From positions 1 to 59,213 of the forward strand of contig JAZKIS010000011.1 in NCBI GenBank assembly GCA_040384725.1: a DNA stretch of 59,213 nucleotides, in the 5' to 3' direction. A program made the translations under genes and the position numbers. Below, piece by piece: positions 48,453 through 53,966 of this stretch. This DNA is from Patescibacteria group bacterium. GTDB taxonomy: Bacteria; Patescibacteriota; Minisyncoccia; Phycocordibacterales; Phycocordibacteraceae. Below the pieces are notes generated by a model, which saw nothing but the letters and a program-made list of their open reading frames with translations, was not told the DNA's origin and did no database searches. Positions within the stretch are counted from its first letter, which is position 1. Every line of letters starts with the position of its first letter.

Positions 48453-50600
48453 TTATAGCTCGTCTTCGTCGCCGTCGTTCGATCCTCCGGCGTTACTCAA
48501 GACTTCACGGGGACGGGAGCCGTCTGCAGGACCAATCACACCCTTTTCTTCAAGAAGATCCATAAGGCGTGCGGCCCGGGAGTAGCCTATGCGGAGCTTC
48601 CTTTGGAGATAGGAGGTTGAGGCACGACCCGCTTCTTCCACTGCCTCGCGCGCTTGTCCGTAGAGGTCGTCGTCCACATCATCGTCCTCGCCCGCAAGCA
48701 TAATCGCGTCGTTCGCTTCGTGAACGCCTGTTCCACCGGTACCCGTGCCAAGATCGAGGCTCGAGAGGGAGCCAGCGTTGTGCTCCTTAAGGAAACTCAC
48801 CACCTTCTTCACCTCCTGCTCGCTGATGTAGGCGGTCTGGAGACGGACAGGCTTCTGCATGTCTGCAGACTGGTAGAGCATATCGCCGGCACCAAGAAGG
48901 AGCTCTGCACCTGAGGCGTCGAGAATAGTGCGTGAATCGATCTGGCTCGCTACCTGGAGCGCGAGTCGGGTAGGGACGTTCGCCTTGATGAGGCCCGTAA
49001 TGACGTTGACCGACGGACGCTGGGTCGAGAGGATGAGGTGGATACCGACGGCGCGCGACATCTGCGCGAGTCGGACGATAGCGCTCTCGAGTTCGCGCGG
49101 GTAGCTCTGCATGATATCCGCGAGCTCGTCGATAACGATAACGACGTACGGCATGGCTTCAGGAATCTCCTTCGCCTTACGCTTCTTCGCCGGCTCGACG
49201 ATAGTCGTGTGATATGACTCGACGTCGCGTACCTGCCGCTCCTCGAGGATGCCGTATCGTCGATCCATCTCCTTTGCGGCCCATTTGAGCGCGAAGATCG
49301 CTTTCTTAGGATCGGTGATAACCGGCGTCAGAAGGTGGGGGATACCGTTATAGAGGGTGAGCTCCACGCGCTTCGGATCGATCATGATGAACCGAAGCTG
49401 GTTCGGGCCATTCCTGAAGAGGAGGGAAGTGATAACCGCGTGGATGGCAACCGACTTTCCGGAGCCGGTGGCACCCGCGATGAGACCGTGCGGCATCTTT
49501 GCGACGTTCACGTAATGAGGCGTACCAGTGATATCGCGGCCAACAGCGGCAAGAAGCGGCTTCTTCGATGCCGACCACTCGGGTGCGCCGATTACGCCGC
49601 CAAGACCAACCATAGCTTTCGATGCGTTAGGGACCTCGATACCTACGAGGGACTTTCCTGGAATCGGAGCTTCGATACGGACCGGATGCGCGGCGAGGGC
49701 GAGCTCAAGGTTCGTCTGGAGCCCGACGATCTTCTGGAGGCGAACACCTTCCGCCGGCTTGATCGCGTAACGGGTAACGGTAGGACCGACCGACACCTCG
49801 TCCATCTCGACCGAGATACCGAAGTTCTGGAACGTACGCTTAATGATGTTCGCGTTCGCCTTGATGTCTCCAACACCCGGCTTGCCCTTGTCTTCCCCGA
49901 GAAGGGAGAGGGGAGGAGCCTCGTACTCAGCATCGAAGTTAGGGATAGACGGGTCCGTGCTCACACTCGATGCTTGATTGAACATGGTTACGGTAGGTTC
50001 CTTTTCCGGAACTTCTTCGTCTTCGGCGGCAGGTTCTTCGGCTTCTTCTTCGACCTCTTCTTCCACGCCAGCATCCTTCTTCTGAGAGAGCTGCGGAAGT
50101 TTCACCGAGGATATCTTCTCGCTTGCGGTATCGGCTGCCTCCTTTAATACGCGCAGGAGCGCAACGACGTCGGTTGCGATGATAAGTCCAATCGCAATGA
50201 TCGCGAGCAGGATGATGATTGCTCCGGCGACACCGAAGAGTTCTGCTGCAGCCTGTCCGAGAGATGTTCCTGCAGCGCCTCCGAGTGCATCGGTGATGAT
50301 GCCGAGGAAGGTAAGAGTGGCGATGATGATGAGTACGATGCCGGTTGCGGTGAGAGGTGCAAGGAAGGATCGCTCAAGCATGATGGAAAGCCCTACACCT
50401 ATAAGGAGTACCGGTAACAAGAATGCTGCGACCCCAATCACGCTGAATCCGAAACCAAAAATTGCGGTCCCTGCGAGGCCGGCTAGGCCAAGGCAGGCGA
50501 GCGCGAAGATGAGTCCAAAGGCGATGAGTACGATGCCCGTCGTCCACTTGGCGAGAGCTTTATAGTTGTCCGCATCGCGGCGCTTCCGGCGCTTTTTCAT
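48453..50600 (-). CDS. ftsK: DNA translocase FtsK/SpoIIIE
   Basis: N-terminal TMs, RIEAPIPGK, AGATGSGKS, IDELAD, TQRPS, gamma domain LQRKLRIGYSRAARL. Confidence 0.97.
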   Translation of the reverse strand: MKKRRKRRDADNYKALAKWTTGIVLIAFGLIFALACLGLAGLAGTAIFGFGFSVIGVAAFLLPVLLIGVGLSIMLERSFLAPLTATGIVLIIIATLTFLGIITDALGGAAGTSLGQAAAELFGVAGAIIILLAIIAIGLIIATDVVALLRVLKEAADTASEKISSVKLPQLSQKKDAGVEEEVEEEAEEPAAEDEEVPEKEPTVTMFNQASSVSTDPSIPNFDAEYEAPPLSLLGEDKGKPGVGDIKANANIIKRTFQNFGISVEMDEVSVGPTVTRYAIKPAEGVRLQKIVGLQTNLELALAAHPVRIEAPIPGKSLVGIEVPNASKAMVGLGGVIGAPEWSASKKPLLAAVGRDITGTPHYVNVAKMPHGLIAGATGSGKSVAIHAVITSLLFRNGPNQLRFIMIDPKRVELTLYNGIPHLLTPVITDPKKAIFALKWAAKEMDRRYGILEERQVRDVESYHTTIVEPAKKRKAKEIPEAMPYVVIVIDELADIMQSYPRELESAIVRLAQMSRAVGIHLILSTQRPSVNVITGLIKANVPTRLALQVASQIDSRTILDASGAELLLGAGDMLYQSADMQKPVRLQTAYISEQEVKKVVSFLKEHNAGSLSSLDLGTGTGGTGVHEANDAIMLAGEDDDVDDDLYGQAREAVEEAGRASTSYLQRKLRIGYSRAARLMDLLEEKGVIGPADGSRPREVLSNAGGSNDGDEDEL

Positions 50601-50656
50601 ATACGTATTCTAGCATCGCGCTCGATTCGATGCGTGCCGGAAAGCCTTTCGTTTGC

Positions 50657-51428
50657 TTGTCCGATAACGTTGTTGCGATGATGTCTTATGGGACATATAC
50701 TGACCTTGACGCAATAAAGGACACTATGAGCGATAAAGGACAGAACAGGGATTCGCATGCGATGAAGGCATACAAAAATAATGCCGATCTTACTAATTTT
50801 GTCCTTGATAAAGCGATATTTTCAGGAGTATTTGAAAAGGACATTCGCCGCGTGTACCTCTACAAGAAAGCTGAGCGACTTGCGAAAGCGATCCATCTGA
50901 TTAGCCCCGCCTTCCTGGAGTCGCCGGCGTTGAAAGATCGAATGGAGCGTATCGCACTCGGTCTCGTCGATGCATCTGTCCTTCCTCCCGTGGCTTCCCG
51001 CGAAGCACTCTCACGAGAATTGCTCGCTCTCTCAAGTATTCTTTCAATCGCGCGTACTGGTGGCATGTTGTCATCGATGAACGCAGAACTCATTGTACGA
51101 GAAGCCCATCTCCTACTTTCTGAGATTGTGGGCTACGAAGAACCACGTCTCGTGCTCGATGAGATTCCATCGCTCGCATCGCTCGCGAAGGCTTCTGCCG
51201 TGAGCGAATCACGTGAGCGGAATGGTCTGCGATCGGTCGCACGCGTCACCTACGACCCGGCCCTTGATGTGCACGATATTGTAGAGGATAAAGGACAGTC
51301 TAAAGGACAAGTAAAGGACATATCCAGGTCAGCTGCATCTATGGGTGAAAAGGGGAGTAATAACATGGAGCGTCGCGAGAGCATCCTTGCCGTGCTGCGT
51401 TCGAAGGGCCCTTCCTATATAAAGGATA
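50657..51428. repeat. Dispersed TAAAGGACA DNA repeats
   Basis: Exact copies at 50715, 50734, 51289, 51301, 51312; variants at 50687, 50835, 51420 (+) and about 50658, 50800, 50977 (-). Confidence 0.85.
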
Positions 51429-51550
51429 TCTCCATGATCGTGCGGGACGTAAGCGAGAAGACCATACAGCGCGAGCTTTCTGCTCTCGTCGCTGAAGGGC
51501 TCGTGAATAGGAAAGGGGATCGTCGCTGGACTACCTACGAGGTCGCTTAA
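50726..51550 (+). CDS. Putative DNA-binding protein: N-terminal helical bundle + C-terminal DeoR-like winged HTH
   Basis: C-terminal RRESILAVLRSKGPSYIKDI...VSEKTIQRELSALVAEGLVNRKGDRRWTTY. Confidence 0.8.
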   Translation: MSDKGQNRDSHAMKAYKNNADLTNFVLDKAIFSGVFEKDIRRVYLYKKAERLAKAIHLISPAFLESPALKDRMERIALGLVDASVLPPVASREALSRELLALSSILSIARTGGMLSSMNAELIVREAHLLLSEIVGYEEPRLVLDEIPSLASLAKASAVSESRERNGLRSVARVTYDPALDVHDIVEDKGQSKGQVKDISRSAASMGEKGSNNMERRESILAVLRSKGPSYIKDISMIVRDVSEKTIQRELSALVAEGLVNRKGDRRWTTYEVA

Positions 51551-51676
51551 ATCCACGTGAAGGCTTCATTGACGAAAGCCTCAAATAAGCTTATTATACT
51601 GAGCGTGGTAACCGCTGGGAGCCAGACGTTCTAAAAGGCCGGAAACGGCCTGTTTTGCGTTTAGCTGAAAACACGG

Positions 51677-51685
51677 TTATCCACA
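51677..51685 (+). promoter_or_regulatory. Consensus DnaA box
   Basis: TTATCCACA, upstream of the TATACT -10 at 51719. Confidence 0.5.
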
Positions 51686-51730
51686 TCACTTTCACAGGGT
51701 CTACAGCAAGTATCTCTGTATACTAGGTAT

Positions 51731-52118
51731 ACGCCCGCGCGTCCGGAATCGTTCTGGTGCGCGGGATTCTGAAACGGCTGATACGACCCTGGAAGAAGGG
51801 ATCCTTGATAAAGGAATAGTGAACCAAAGTCCTGCGGTGTAAGAACCAGCAGGCACGCCCGTCTTCATGAACAGACGGGCGCCTGAAACGGATGCTTTTG
51901 ATAGAACATGGATGAACGAAAGAATGACTGATCATTCGCCAACTAGCCGATGGGACGCTCGTCGATAGTGCGCCCTGTCGGATAGTGTGAACCGTTCGAA
52001 AACTCACTCCCTTCCTCTCGGGGAGGGGAGGAGATTACAAAGAGAGATAAAAGGTGCGTACGCGATACGAATTATTACTAGCCGTAGCGCGCACGTACTT
52101 CAACTACTTACAAAAAAC
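51731..52118 (+). ncRNA. Long, highly structured 5' leader or candidate ncRNA
   Basis: TATACT at 51719-24, then at least eight hairpins before ATG 52119. Confidence 0.55.
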
Positions 52119-53966
52119 ATGATTGCAACTAGCAACACAATGACCGCGAAGATTTTCGCAGCTCTTGCTGTCGCAGGACTCGTTGTATCGTCGGTTGCCG
52201 CATTTGCTCCAACAGCAGGTGCTCAGACTACGACTACTACGACCACCACGACTTCAGCATCGGTTACGTTCTCTCGTGATCTTACAATCGGTTCTACAGG
52301 TGCAGACGTTACTGCGCTTCAGAACTGGCTCATCAGCAAGGGTCACGCTATCGCAGCTGGCGCAACCGGATACTTCGGTGCACAGACGCAGGCGGCTCTC
52401 GCTGCTTACCAGGCAGCAAACGGAATTTCTCCAGCAGCTGGTTACTTCGGCCCGATCACTCGCGCTAAGGTAAACGCTGGTGGTTCTACTTCCGGCGGCA
52501 CTGGCACAGGTACTGGCACCGGTTCTACTGGTGGCGACCTTTCCGGTGGCGAGGCAAACCTCTCCGACTTCGACTTCATCGCAGAAGATTCTTCTGGCGA
52601 CGAGGGTGAGGAGGGTGTAGAGATCGCAACTGCAGAGTTCGATGTTGAGGACGCTGACGCTCGTGTTGAGCGCGTTGAGCTCACCTTCGATGCTGCATCT
52701 TCGACTCTCGACCAGAAGCCTTGGCAGTACTTCGACACCATCTATGTTTGGGCTGATGGTGACGAGATCGCTGACATCGACGCATCTGACCGTGACGAGT
52801 GGGATGAGACCACCGACGACGTTTACGTTATTTCCATCTCTGGACTTGACTACGACGTTAGCGAGGGCGACATGGCATCTCTCACGTTCTCTGCAGACAT
52901 CGCAGGTTCCATCGATGAGTCTGACCAGGATCAGTCCTTCGATGTATACGTCGATGACGAGGGTATCCGCGCTGTAGACGGCGATGGTATCCAGCAGTAC
53001 ATCGGTGACGATGAGGATGAGATCGACTTCGACTTCGGTGCTCAGGACAACGGTGATCTTCAGGTCAAGTCTTCTAGCGAGGACCCTGACTCTACGATCC
53101 TCGTTGCTGATGAGAACGACGAGTCTGAGGACTACACTGCATTCGTATTCGACATCGAGAACGATGGCGATGCAGATGCATTGATCACTGACATTACTCT
53201 CCGCACCGCGACAACTTCGGCTACCCTCACGAACATGGTTCGTACGGCTACCCTCGTTGTTGATGGCGATGAGTACGATGGTGATATCAACTTCAGCACT
53301 GGCGCTATCGAGTTCGAGGACATTGACCTCGAGATCGCTGGTGACGATGAGGTAGCGTTCGAGCTCATGGTCTCCCTCAAGGAAGACGCATCGACTGGTA
53401 CGGTTACCTTCTCGGTTGCTAACGCAGACGTAGATGCAGAAGGTGTTGACTCTGGTGATGACACCACAGTTACCGGTTCCGCTACAGGTAGTGCACACAC
53501 CGTTGCTCTTACGGGCATCGCTGTTGAGGCAGTATCGACGAGCGAGACCGTTGTCACCCCTGGTGATAGCTCCGCAAACACCTACGCAACCTACACCATC
53601 AAGTTCGACGTAACGGCTCTCTCTGACGATGCTTACATCGCATCTACGACTGACGCTACAGCGGCTGGATTCGAGGGTGTAACCTACACTGTCTACCAGG
53701 ACGGCGCGGCAACCACTACCTTCGCAGGTAGCGCGGTTCTCAGCTCGACTGCAGACACGTCATCCGGCTTCTTCGTAGTCGATGAGGGCGACACTGAGAC
53801 ATTCACTCTCACGGTCACTCTCAACCCTACGGCTGCTGGTACGTACGAGGTTGATCTATCAACGATCAGCTTCAACGATGAGGTCGCTTACTCGGGCGAG
53901 ACGGTCTTCACGATCGACACGAACGACGACGACTTCAAGACGAACCCAACATACATCGCTAACTAA
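52119..53966 (+). CDS. S-layer-like surface protein: signal peptide, peptidoglycan-binding domain, very acidic beta-rich body
   Basis: RDLTIGSTGADVTALQ..GYFGAQTQAALAAYQAANGI..GYFGPITRA; Thr and Gly/Thr linkers; codon choice like the ribosomal-protein genes; alternative start 52140. Confidence 0.8.
   Translation: MIATSNTMTAKIFAALAVAGLVVSSVAAFAPTAGAQTTTTTTTTTSASVTFSRDLTIGSTGADVTALQNWLISKGHAIAAGATGYFGAQTQAALAAYQAANGISPAAGYFGPITRAKVNAGGSTSGGTGTGTGTGSTGGDLSGGEANLSDFDFIAEDSSGDEGEEGVEIATAEFDVEDADARVERVELTFDAASSTLDQKPWQYFDTIYVWADGDEIADIDASDRDEWDETTDDVYVISISGLDYDVSEGDMASLTFSADIAGSIDESDQDQSFDVYVDDEGIRAVDGDGIQQYIGDDEDEIDFDFGAQDNGDLQVKSSSEDPDSTILVADENDESEDYTAFVFDIENDGDADALITDITLRTATTSATLTNMVRTATLVVDGDEYDGDINFSTGAIEFEDIDLEIAGDDEVAFELMVSLKEDASTGTVTFSVANADVDAEGVDSGDDTTVTGSATGSAHTVALTGIAVEAVSTSETVVTPGDSSANTYATYTIKFDVTALSDDAYIASTTDATAAGFEGVTYTVYQDGAATTTFAGSAVLSSTADTSSGFFVVDEGDTETFTLTVTLNPTAAGTYEVDLSTISFNDEVAYSGETVFTIDTNDDDFKTNPTYIAN

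Follow-up and report, generated by a model that had tools for sequence, protein, structure and literature searches.

We analyzed a stretch of DNA of 59,213 nucleotides (nt) from a Patescibacteria group bacterium (the window, which is contig C11 of the source genome G000), and we focused on one gene in it, which encodes a protein with a winged helix-turn-helix (wHTH) domain and lies next to ftsK. Our comparisons show that the 9-base motif TAAAGGACA is under selection at the nucleotide level, and that clusters of the motif are found at just two loci per genome, of which the protein's own gene is always one. We think that the protein is most likely a sequence-specific DNA-binding protein, without family annotation in the sources searched, and that TAAAGGACA would be its recognition site. 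The reading that we prefer, and to which we give a probability of roughly 0.6, is that the protein would act as an autoregulated repressor whose regulon comprises two promoters and whose auxiliary operators lie inside genes.

The source genome is an assembly of 740,799 base pairs (bp) in 13 contigs with a completeness of 97.75%. An original prediction, made from the letters of the window, had stated that five exact copies of the motif lie in and before the wHTH gene and that none was noticed by eye elsewhere in the window. Both statements were right. The exact copies begin at 50715, 50734, 51289, 51301, and 51312, all on the plus strand, and a scan of the whole window gave no further exact copy outside 50715-51320. 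The expectation for the window is 0.12 copies, and five copies were reached in none of 100 shuffles. When one mismatch was allowed, 18 sites were found in the window against 5.6 expected, and eight of them fall within 50715-51428. Similarly, 10 of the 97 GGACA/TGTCC cores of the window fall in 50600-51550, a segment of 951 bp that makes up 1.6% of the window. Variants on both strands had also been predicted, and one-mismatch sites are indeed present at 50800 (minus strand), 50835 (plus strand), and 51420 (plus strand).

The wHTH gene (50726-51550, plus strand) encodes 274 amino acids. A longer open reading frame (ORF) from 50630 would give 306 amino acids and would include a promoter-like site. 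Because this site lies inside the longer extension, and because the orthologue alignment also points to it, the ATG at 50726 is taken as the likely start. The divergent neighbour, the ftsK ORF (48453-50600, minus strand), has a control region of 125 bp in common with the wHTH gene. In this region, a consensus scan gave the promoter-like sequence TTGCGA-17-TATACT (50673-50701, plus strand), which matches at 9 of 12 positions. The inverted pair TGTC-N6-GACA, which had been noticed at 50682-50695, is present in the spacer of this promoter and touches the -10 element; we regard it as a presumed operator. The first exact site (50715-50723, plus strand) is noncoding, starts 11 nt ahead of the likely ATG, and includes a Shine-Dalgarno-like AAGGA, and the second (50734-50742, plus strand) occupies codons 3-6, which encode DKGQ. 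These are followed by the one-mismatch sites TCAAGGACA (50800-50808, minus strand), the position of which is kept in the close relative L011, and AAAAGGACA (50835-50843, plus strand), which forms the codons for EKDI.

The other three exact sites form a triplet (51289-51320, plus strand) that encodes DKGQSKGQVKDI, and the own-promoter sites are about 570 bp away from this array. A last one-mismatch site, TAAAGGATA (51420-51428, plus strand), codes for IKDI at the start of the wHTH domain. The spacing of the triplet (12 and 11 bp), the use of two reading frames, and the position of one copy upstream of the likely start were all as predicted. The two frames correspond to offsets 2 and 1 from the ATG. 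In the third frame the motif opens with a TAA stop, so that sense-strand copies are limited to the two frames used.

To see how far this arrangement is kept, we compared 30 orthologous loci of about 3.6 kilobases (kb) each, taken from 41 related genomes, 37 of which have the gene. The gene region was defined as the gene with 400 nt upstream and 150 nt downstream. Across the 30 loci, 200 of the 212 sites with at most one mismatch lie inside the gene region, and 28 loci have at least one exact copy there. In seven loci from other families, with protein identities of 26-34%, the copies differ in position and number and both strands are used. Arrays in the linker-coding region are seen in the orthologues too. 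An equivalent of the 50835 site is present in 15 of the 30 loci (exactly AAAAGGACA in 12), at +103 to +109, or numbered +40 to +55 where the aligned match begins later. The equivalent of the 51420 site is an exact TAAAGGACA in six orthologues (L020, L021, L024, L025, L027, and L034).

In the promoter region of 18 of 28 orthologues, a site or half-site and a -10-like hexamer are fused, for example as TATACTGTCC. The close relative L011 has an inverted pair of the form TGTCC-TATG-GGACA, and the distant loci L038 and L039 have a TGTCC-N10-GGACA palindrome around a TATAAT-like hexamer. Among 56 distances between neighbouring sites on the same strand, 11 bp was the commonest (12 cases), followed by 12 bp (8 cases).

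The codon choice in the copies was examined for the peptide Lys-Gly-His/Gln. In the 28 orthologous genes this peptide was written AAAGGACA in 33 of 37 cases, as compared to 3 of 40 in the other long ORFs of G000, and the synonymous base ahead of AAAGGACA was T in 31 of the 33. This fixed codon choice indicates that selection acts on the nucleotides. That is, the constraint at the DNA level that had been proposed from the window alone held up well, as the motif is kept in different frames, on both strands, in noncoding DNA, and in orthologues of as little as 26% identity. In other orders of the class we took 20 orthologues, and the wHTH could be located in 19 of them. In eight of the 19, a drifted word occurs three or more times, either at the 5' end or in the linker just before the wHTH or, in five of the eight, at both places. 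Seven of the words are 8-mers (AAAGGACA, ATAGGACA, AATGGACA twice, AAACGACA, ATTGGACA, and AAAGACAA), and the eighth is the 6-base core AGGACA. From these arrays it follows that the architecture is older than the exact motif.

In the AlphaFold2 model (34 sequences), the protein consists of a four-helix bundle (residues 40-135), a helix (150-166), a disordered linker (167-210), and one wHTH (211-274). The mean predicted local distance difference test score (pLDDT) was 74. The four long helices of the bundle scored above 90, and the triplet encodes residues 188-199, within the linker, where the pLDDT is below 50. In the alignment of the 34 sequences, the recognition helix SEKTIQREL is invariant and the wing G[ED]RRW is conserved, with Gly264, Arg266, Arg267, and Trp268 invariant. 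The linker is hypervariable, and its sole recurring feature is KG[HQ] / [IV]KD.

A database search gave 1534 homologues at E <= 0.001, and of 151 genomes sampled from the class, 78 gave the gene. No precomputed Pfam domain was attached to any of the 120 homologues listed, which come from Parcubacteria/Patescibacteria records and, where they have a name, are called 'hypothetical' or, automatically, 'ArsR family regulator'. An Atlas look-up returned hypothetical-protein clusters only. A full-text search of the literature, judged at the level of the search results, gave nothing on the protein or the motif in these bacteria. The matches to Pfam and NCBIfam were solely sub-threshold wHTH matches at the C terminus (in Pfam HTH_DeoR, HTH_5, TrmB, and Penicillinase_R), the protein of the window staying below the curated cut-offs. 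With HTH_DeoR it reached 15.0-15.3 bits against a cut-off of 21, and 32 of the 34 members matched weakly, at best with an E value of 2e-5. We rejected membership of the DeoR family, because the score is under the cut-off, the wHTH is C-terminal and ends the protein, and the helical bundle has no DeoRC match. The C-terminal wHTH, which the original prediction had described as DeoR-like, is seen in the model.

A Foldseek search with the wHTH gave Z-alpha, AspA, MecI/BlaI, and DsrD among its matches, with template modelling (TM) scores on the target of 0.6-0.9 and E values of 0.01-0.1. The bundle had been likened to those of the IVP/Avd type. As for the fold, the IVP-family structures 2gsc and 2rld were among the best Foldseek matches (TM on target 0.66-0.72, E 0.03-0.12), and the fold is a generic one. 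As for the sequence, the likeness does not hold: none of the 34 aligned members, the window's protein included, matched the IVP/Avd family (PF05635) at E up to 1, and a profile search of the PDB gave no IVP entry and nothing relevant. Two other assignments were tried and rejected. A Rep_3-like initiator is not supported, as there is no Rep match in Pfam or NCBIfam and the model has a single wHTH. The protein is not a ParB either, as it has no ParB domain and the 9-mer motif is unrelated to the 16-bp parS palindrome.

Then we looked at the motif in the whole genome. G000 has 11 exact copies in total, of which five are at the wHTH gene, four are in C6:423-3896, and two are single. Cluster scoring over the whole genome gave four clusters. 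Two of them are in the wHTH gene (50715-50843 and 51289-51428), and the other two are at cca-xth, one inside cca, the gene for the CCA-adding enzyme (C6:2333-2506), and one in the gap between cca and xth (C6:3831-3902). Thus, the motif is not common in the genome, as the original prediction implied, but it is not unique to the wHTH locus, since cca-xth appears as a second target. The complete genome of the relative G017 has the same four clusters and one weak extra, and the cca-xth pair was also seen in G024, G003, G025, and G040.

The genes cca and xth are convergent, and beside the xth stop the motif takes part in a composite: TAAAGGACA, 1-3 nt, TTATCCACA, 2-5 nt, and TGTCCTTTA. Here TTATCCACA is, by the DnaA-box consensus, a perfect DnaA box. 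The composite usually continues with a third site and then a TATAAT/TATACT-like hexamer, and the strand of this -10 element reads toward cca. In its exact form, TGTGGATAA-N1-3-TGTCCTTTA with 18 specified bases, the composite is present as a single copy in each of 36 genomes out of 401 from the order, and the reversed control was found in none of the 401. We took 20 of these 36 genomes for a closer comparison. In 18 of them cca lies within 6 kb, the composite being always past the 3' end of cca; the cca-xth gap measures 297-983 bp, and xth adjoins the composite in 16 of the 20. The exact convergent pair co-occurs in 4 of the 151 genomes of the class, all four among the 78 with the protein, a criterion too strict to inform. 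The array inside cca of G000 has four sites in 64 bp, in all three frames, and the composite is about 1.4 kb away from it. The xth stop is the TAA that opens a minus-strand TAAAGGACA site (L009 3888-3896), and the same is seen in G017.

In 16 aligned gaps, the sequence after the composite ends in the conserved terminator-like GGCGGTTTTT before the cca stop. From this alignment we infer that a unit without annotation is transcribed antisense to cca, with a length that we judged by eye to be roughly 230-330 nt. Three presumed operators and one DnaA box would lie over its promoter. Searches of Rfam, by gathering score with the window, L009, and 20 further loci and by E value with L009 3380-3930, gave tRNAs and chance-level matches only and no match in the cca-xth gap. 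ARAGORN found no transfer-messenger RNA in L009. There is no conserved ORF in the gap: of 80 ORFs of at least 25 amino acids, only two pairs from close relatives match. The gap itself (L009 3414-3893, with its counterparts in L040-L044 and L097-L116) is noncoding and conserved as a feature. Close to the 5' end of the predicted unit there is a boxA-like GTTCTTTGA, and apart from this and the terminator the primary sequence is poorly conserved.

Some smaller groups of sites were also seen. Between two tRNA genes at C6:400-470 (L009), the minus strand has GGGGACA, GATAAAGGACA, and TAGGACA, which are direct repeats of the GGACA type, and in G040 three exact sites (C1:238199-238235) adjoin a tRNA-like stretch. 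These tRNA-adjacent repeats may be a minor third class of target. The genome G029, which has 386 N bases, gave no match to the protein, yet clustered motif copies occur at C2:104445-107471.

Taken together, these observations can be considered as follows. The protein would repress its own promoter via the sites that overlap the -10 element and the 5' end of the gene, and the array in the linker-coding region would be an auxiliary operator that raises local occupancy. The spacing of 11-12 bp would allow cooperative binding of neighbouring wHTH domains on one face of the DNA, perhaps with looping from the linker array to the promoter sites about 570 bp away. A second controlled promoter would lie between xth and cca, in the order site, DnaA box, site, site, and -10 element. 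It would read toward cca through the unit of about 0.3 kb, and the array inside cca, about 1.4 kb farther downstream, would be its auxiliary operator. The linker peptide KG[HQ]/[IV]KD would then be a by-product of carrying DNA sites. We propose that varied spacing and orientation are tolerated because a flexible linker joins the wHTH to a bundle that would oligomerise. Both the 11-12 bp spacing and the two clusters per locus fit an oligomeric binder and autoregulation, and a second, distant cluster is present at both target loci in an arrangement that is conserved in relatives. Autoregulation, which the original prediction had offered as one possibility, is supported by sequence only, that is, by the sites overlapping the gene's own promoter and by the fusion with the -10 element in the orthologues. 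As for ftsK, its divergent position had been pointed out, and in all 30 loci tblastn placed it upstream of the wHTH gene in divergent orientation. Since the -10-like hexamer of ftsK is about 65 bp or more from the nearest site, ftsK might be controlled as well, but this is not indicated.

Several points weigh against this autoregulated repressor. All of the promoters are consensus matches. The sites inside coding regions are almost all on the sense strand, which also fits a signal at the RNA level, although the bias could come from coding constraints in the hydrophilic linker. A different protein could be the binder of the motif. The 50835 and 51420 sites overlap EKDI and IKDI, which are conserved in the protein, so that the level of the constraint is ambiguous at these two. 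The locus L033 has no site with at most one mismatch within the gene (another locus, L029, is truncated), and the repeated 8-mer is absent in 11 of the 19 class-level orthologues. In RNA runs of relatives, described below, the wHTH gene is represented by one piece of 35 nt (51,364-51,398), which is uninformative on expression. In addition, the relatives are not independent, so that the counts given above overstate the support and should be read as a pattern rather than as a test statistic.

Where the two loci lie in the chromosome matters for the choice among the other readings. In G017 (complete, 993,452 bp), the cumulative GC skew is lowest at 780,371, next to dnaA (781,965), and highest near 255,329. 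The orthologue of the wHTH gene is at 872 kb, 92 kb from the origin, and cca-xth is at 724 kb. According to this skew, the two loci are origin-proximal and on opposite sides, and neither is the origin or the terminus. We therefore rejected the wHTH locus as oriC or terminus, judging from the relative G017 and not from G000 itself, and the mapping against the GC skew that the original prediction had suggested placed the locus at neither. The order cca, dnaA, wHTH gene holds also in G024 and G003, and in these three genomes the two loci flank dnaA at distances of 26-57 kb and 63-90 kb. The terminal 13 kb of G017 (980,001-993,452; L096) has a GC skew of -0.23 as compared to about ±0.05 elsewhere, and could be an unusual insert or a feature of the assembly.

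The second locus also coincides with sequences resembling TGTTTCACGTGAAACA, which we take to be the parS consensus (a general one, not derived from these genomes). In G000, 7 of the 19 parS-like matches with at most four mismatches fall in C6:2534-3632, and all four full TT[CT]CACGTG[AG]AA palindromes fall in C6:2536-3645, between the two motif clusters. This is the only parS-like cluster (TTTCACGTGAAA type) of G000. It occupies the 3' two-thirds of cca and the gap after it, about 26 kb from dnaA, and several of its sites fall in coding sequence. In G017, 5 of 32 parS-like matches are at the same place, and five other loci have 4-6 each. In the 20 further genomes with the composite, at least three parS-like sites (at most three mismatches) are nearby in 11 and fewer in 9. 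The motif clusters bracket the parS-like cluster in some genomes and adjoin it in others, and in G040 the parS-like sites are upstream of cca and not between the arrays. ParB is encoded at C4:17325. At the wHTH gene there is no parS-like site with at most four mismatches. The idea of a centromere-like module in the original prediction thus gains something from the cca-xth clusters, the only other motif clusters, which bracket or adjoin the parS-like cluster, and is disfavoured at the wHTH gene.

These data bear on the strongest of the other explanations, in which the protein is a chromosome-organising or centromere-associated protein and its arrays bracket or insulate parS, for example by limiting how far ParB spreads or by anchoring loops; across the origin, a second anchor would be formed by the arrays next to ftsK, in the protein's own gene. 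We consider this doubtful, though it deserves more weight than the explanations discussed after it. It agrees with the enclosed palindromes and parS-like matches of G000 and with a comparable picture in G017, G024, G003, and G025, with the 11 genomes having parS-like sites near the composite, with the presence of ParB, with the positions on opposite sides of dnaA, with the constant neighbourhood of ftsK, and with the weak likeness of the wHTH fold to the centromere binder AspA (E 0.05). On the other hand, the remaining 9 of the 20 genomes and the sites of G040 do not conform, the wHTH gene lacks parS, and conserved gene order is expected within a genus; the parS consensus itself is a general one. 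Moreover, the sites are precisely placed around -10 elements at both loci, as a transcription factor needs. An architectural role stays in consideration, as in many genomes the second locus and the parS region coincide.

It is also conceivable that a different factor binds the motif and that the wHTH gene is just one of its two targets. The DnaA box in the composite does mean that at least one further protein is expected there. However, the gene and the motif are associated in 28 of 30 loci, and the association survives the drift of the motif, as expected of a cognate pair; the recognition helix is also invariant where the motif is invariant. We think this explanation unlikely.

The readings at the RNA level, as an iteron-type origin, and as slippage are weaker. 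In the first of them, the sense copies would act in the mRNAs, where an RNA-binding protein could recognise them or where they could serve, like Shine-Dalgarno sequences, for pausing or entry. The copies inside genes are nearly all sense, the motif contains AAGGA, and the first copy lies 4 nt ahead of the ATG, all of which suit such a role. But exact copies on the opposite strand are found in noncoding DNA, both upstream of predicted starts and on either side of the DnaA box, and pairing with the anti-Shine-Dalgarno sequence leaves the conserved T1 and C8-A9 unexplained. A Shine-Dalgarno-like AGGA precedes only 67 of 576 long ORFs, and the 3' end of 16S ribosomal RNA was not found in the G000 assembly. 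An element of this kind seems improbable to us.

The next reading concerns the DnaA box near the wHTH gene, so the region downstream has to be described. G000 has five perfect DnaA boxes. One of them, TTATCCACA at 51677-51685 (plus strand), is 127 nt past the wHTH stop and 33 nt ahead of a TATACT hexamer (51719-51724), which heads a leader of the next gene of about 400 nt with strongly conserved blocks (box and leader together, 51677-52140). The leader contains a boxA-like CCTTGATAA (51803-51811) and may be a structured leader or a riboswitch. The next gene encodes a secreted protein with a likely start near 52140. A perfect DnaA box occurs 46-354 nt past the stop in 26 of 28 orthologues; of the other two, one has N bases and one has a box with one mismatch. 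In L022, a run of N lies about 80-130 nt past the wHTH stop, exactly where the box is expected. The presence of a DnaA box near the gene, which was part of the original prediction, is therefore conserved, but its tie to the site array is not supported, as it has no flanking TAAAGGACA and belongs to the next promoter. Intergenic TTATCCACA followed by TAnnnT after 28-33 nt was seen in G000 at C8:16252 and C11:51677 and in G017 at 413915, 724379, and 872806. Judging from these positions, promoters of this lineage may regularly have a DnaA box as an upstream element.

In the iteron reading, the locus would be a secondary or ancestral plasmid-type origin, with a Rep-like initiator, iterons, an operator, and a DnaA box. 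The direct repeats with helical spacing, the inverted repeat that covers the gene's promoter, the wHTH of the protein, and the neighbouring DnaA box give a layout like that of an iteron plasmid, and sites in a linker-coding region resemble the lambda O gene with ori lambda. However, the skew minimum of G017 is beside dnaA and the orthologue is at 872 kb, no Rep_3 or other initiator family matches, and the sites measure 9 bp and not 17-22 bp. In addition, the DnaA box stands at a fixed distance ahead of a -10 element and heads a leader that is covered by RNA contigs, and the fixed gene order across an order speaks against a mobile replicon. We judge such an origin very improbable. Finally, replication slippage, that is, a recent tandem duplication of a low-complexity peptide in the linker without DNA function, would account for three tandem copies there, but we give it almost no credence, since the 11-bp step shifts the frame, noncoding DNA has copies as well, the two strands are both used, and the codon choice and the orthologue arrays, which differ in position and number with the same 9-mer, contradict it.

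Between the wHTH gene and the DnaA box there is another unit (51569-51651, plus strand) of about 50 nt that resembles a small RNA gene. It has a promoter-like TTGACG-17-TATTAT, with 10 of 12 positions matching, and a terminator (51636-51651) formed by AGGCCGGAAACGGCCT and following Ts. A similar unit, ending in ggccggaaacggcc, is present in most orthologous loci. Its transcript, predicted at 51569-51655, may be a small RNA. Searches of Rfam, by E value with 51450-52250 and by gathering score with the window, gave no match for this unit or for the leader. The unit is a neighbour, and its membership of the site system is not indicated. Contigs from RNA libraries of relatives, from three studies and 90-95% alike, cover 51,628-52,300, in the leader and the next gene. 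Among the sequencing runs, the presumed source run alone contains the whole stretch, and other DNA and RNA runs contain small shares of it.

We compared the proposed system of an autoregulated repressor with known ones. The repressors of lac (O1/O2), gal (OE/OI), and deo have auxiliary operators inside coding DNA. As in these systems, a site over the promoter is paired here with an array hundreds of bp downstream in a gene, and there are two such pairs. Unlike in these systems, the array is in the linker-coding sequence of the regulator itself, it is made of 2-4 direct repeats at 11-12 bp, and the family is unrelated. In phage lambda, the iterons of ori lambda sit inside the O gene. The wHTH gene resembles O in that its presumed own sites are in the stretch coding for an interdomain linker, so that the peptide is shaped by a DNA function. 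In contrast to lambda O, where the array is the replication origin, the origin here is at dnaA, 92 kb away in G017, and there is no relation in sequence or fold. RepA, RepE, and pi are initiators of iteron plasmids. Like them, the protein has a winged helix and is accompanied by direct repeats in helical phase, by a DnaA box in the vicinity, and by an inverted repeat that covers its promoter and would serve autorepression, whereas it has one winged helix and not two, 9-bp sites, and a chromosomal locus of fixed gene order that is not at the origin.

As for the protein itself, its C-terminal 60 residues superpose on MecI/BlaI, ArsR-like proteins, DsrD, Z-alpha, and AspA of pNOB8, but its architecture of an N-terminal bundle and a long linker sets it apart from them. 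The four-helix bundle is like that of the IVP or 'S23 ribosomal' family, which includes Avd of diversity-generating retroelements, although there is no sequence-profile relation to PF05635 and the four-helix bundle is a common fold. Avd is a homo-pentamer. What appears to be new here, from the sequences compared, is a family without annotation, a clear self-targeting array in coding sequence, and a two-locus regulon tied to a DnaA box and to parS. Taken as a whole, the interpretation offered in the original prediction was partly supported.

We also consider, tentatively and with little confidence, a regulator peculiar to this class that would couple replication status to chromosome segregation and division. 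Together with DnaA it would gate the firing of a promoter into the parS centromere region, and the paired arrays would insulate parS by means of loops or roadblocks. If this were true, it would be a new kind of organiser of the origin region in bacteria that lack most of the known cell-cycle regulators. Its own gene, with paired arrays, would stand back-to-back with ftsK, across the origin from cca-xth, and the sequence of the protein's linker would be dictated by its own operator array.

To our knowledge, gene regulation is almost unexplored in the Parcubacteria (Paceibacteria), as these bacteria cannot be grown on their own. The present analysis gives a concrete pairing of a regulator and its presumed sites, that is, a conserved protein, a 9-bp motif, two target loci per genome, and exact predicted positions of operators. 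It also offers a clear natural case in which selection at the DNA level overrides the freedom at the protein level, as a hypervariable disordered linker is conserved solely as the regulator's own presumed site, read in two frames. The second target unites a perfect DnaA box, presumed operators, a parS-like cluster, and a predicted transcription unit, and it suggests a link between replication, segregation, and transcription in these bacteria.

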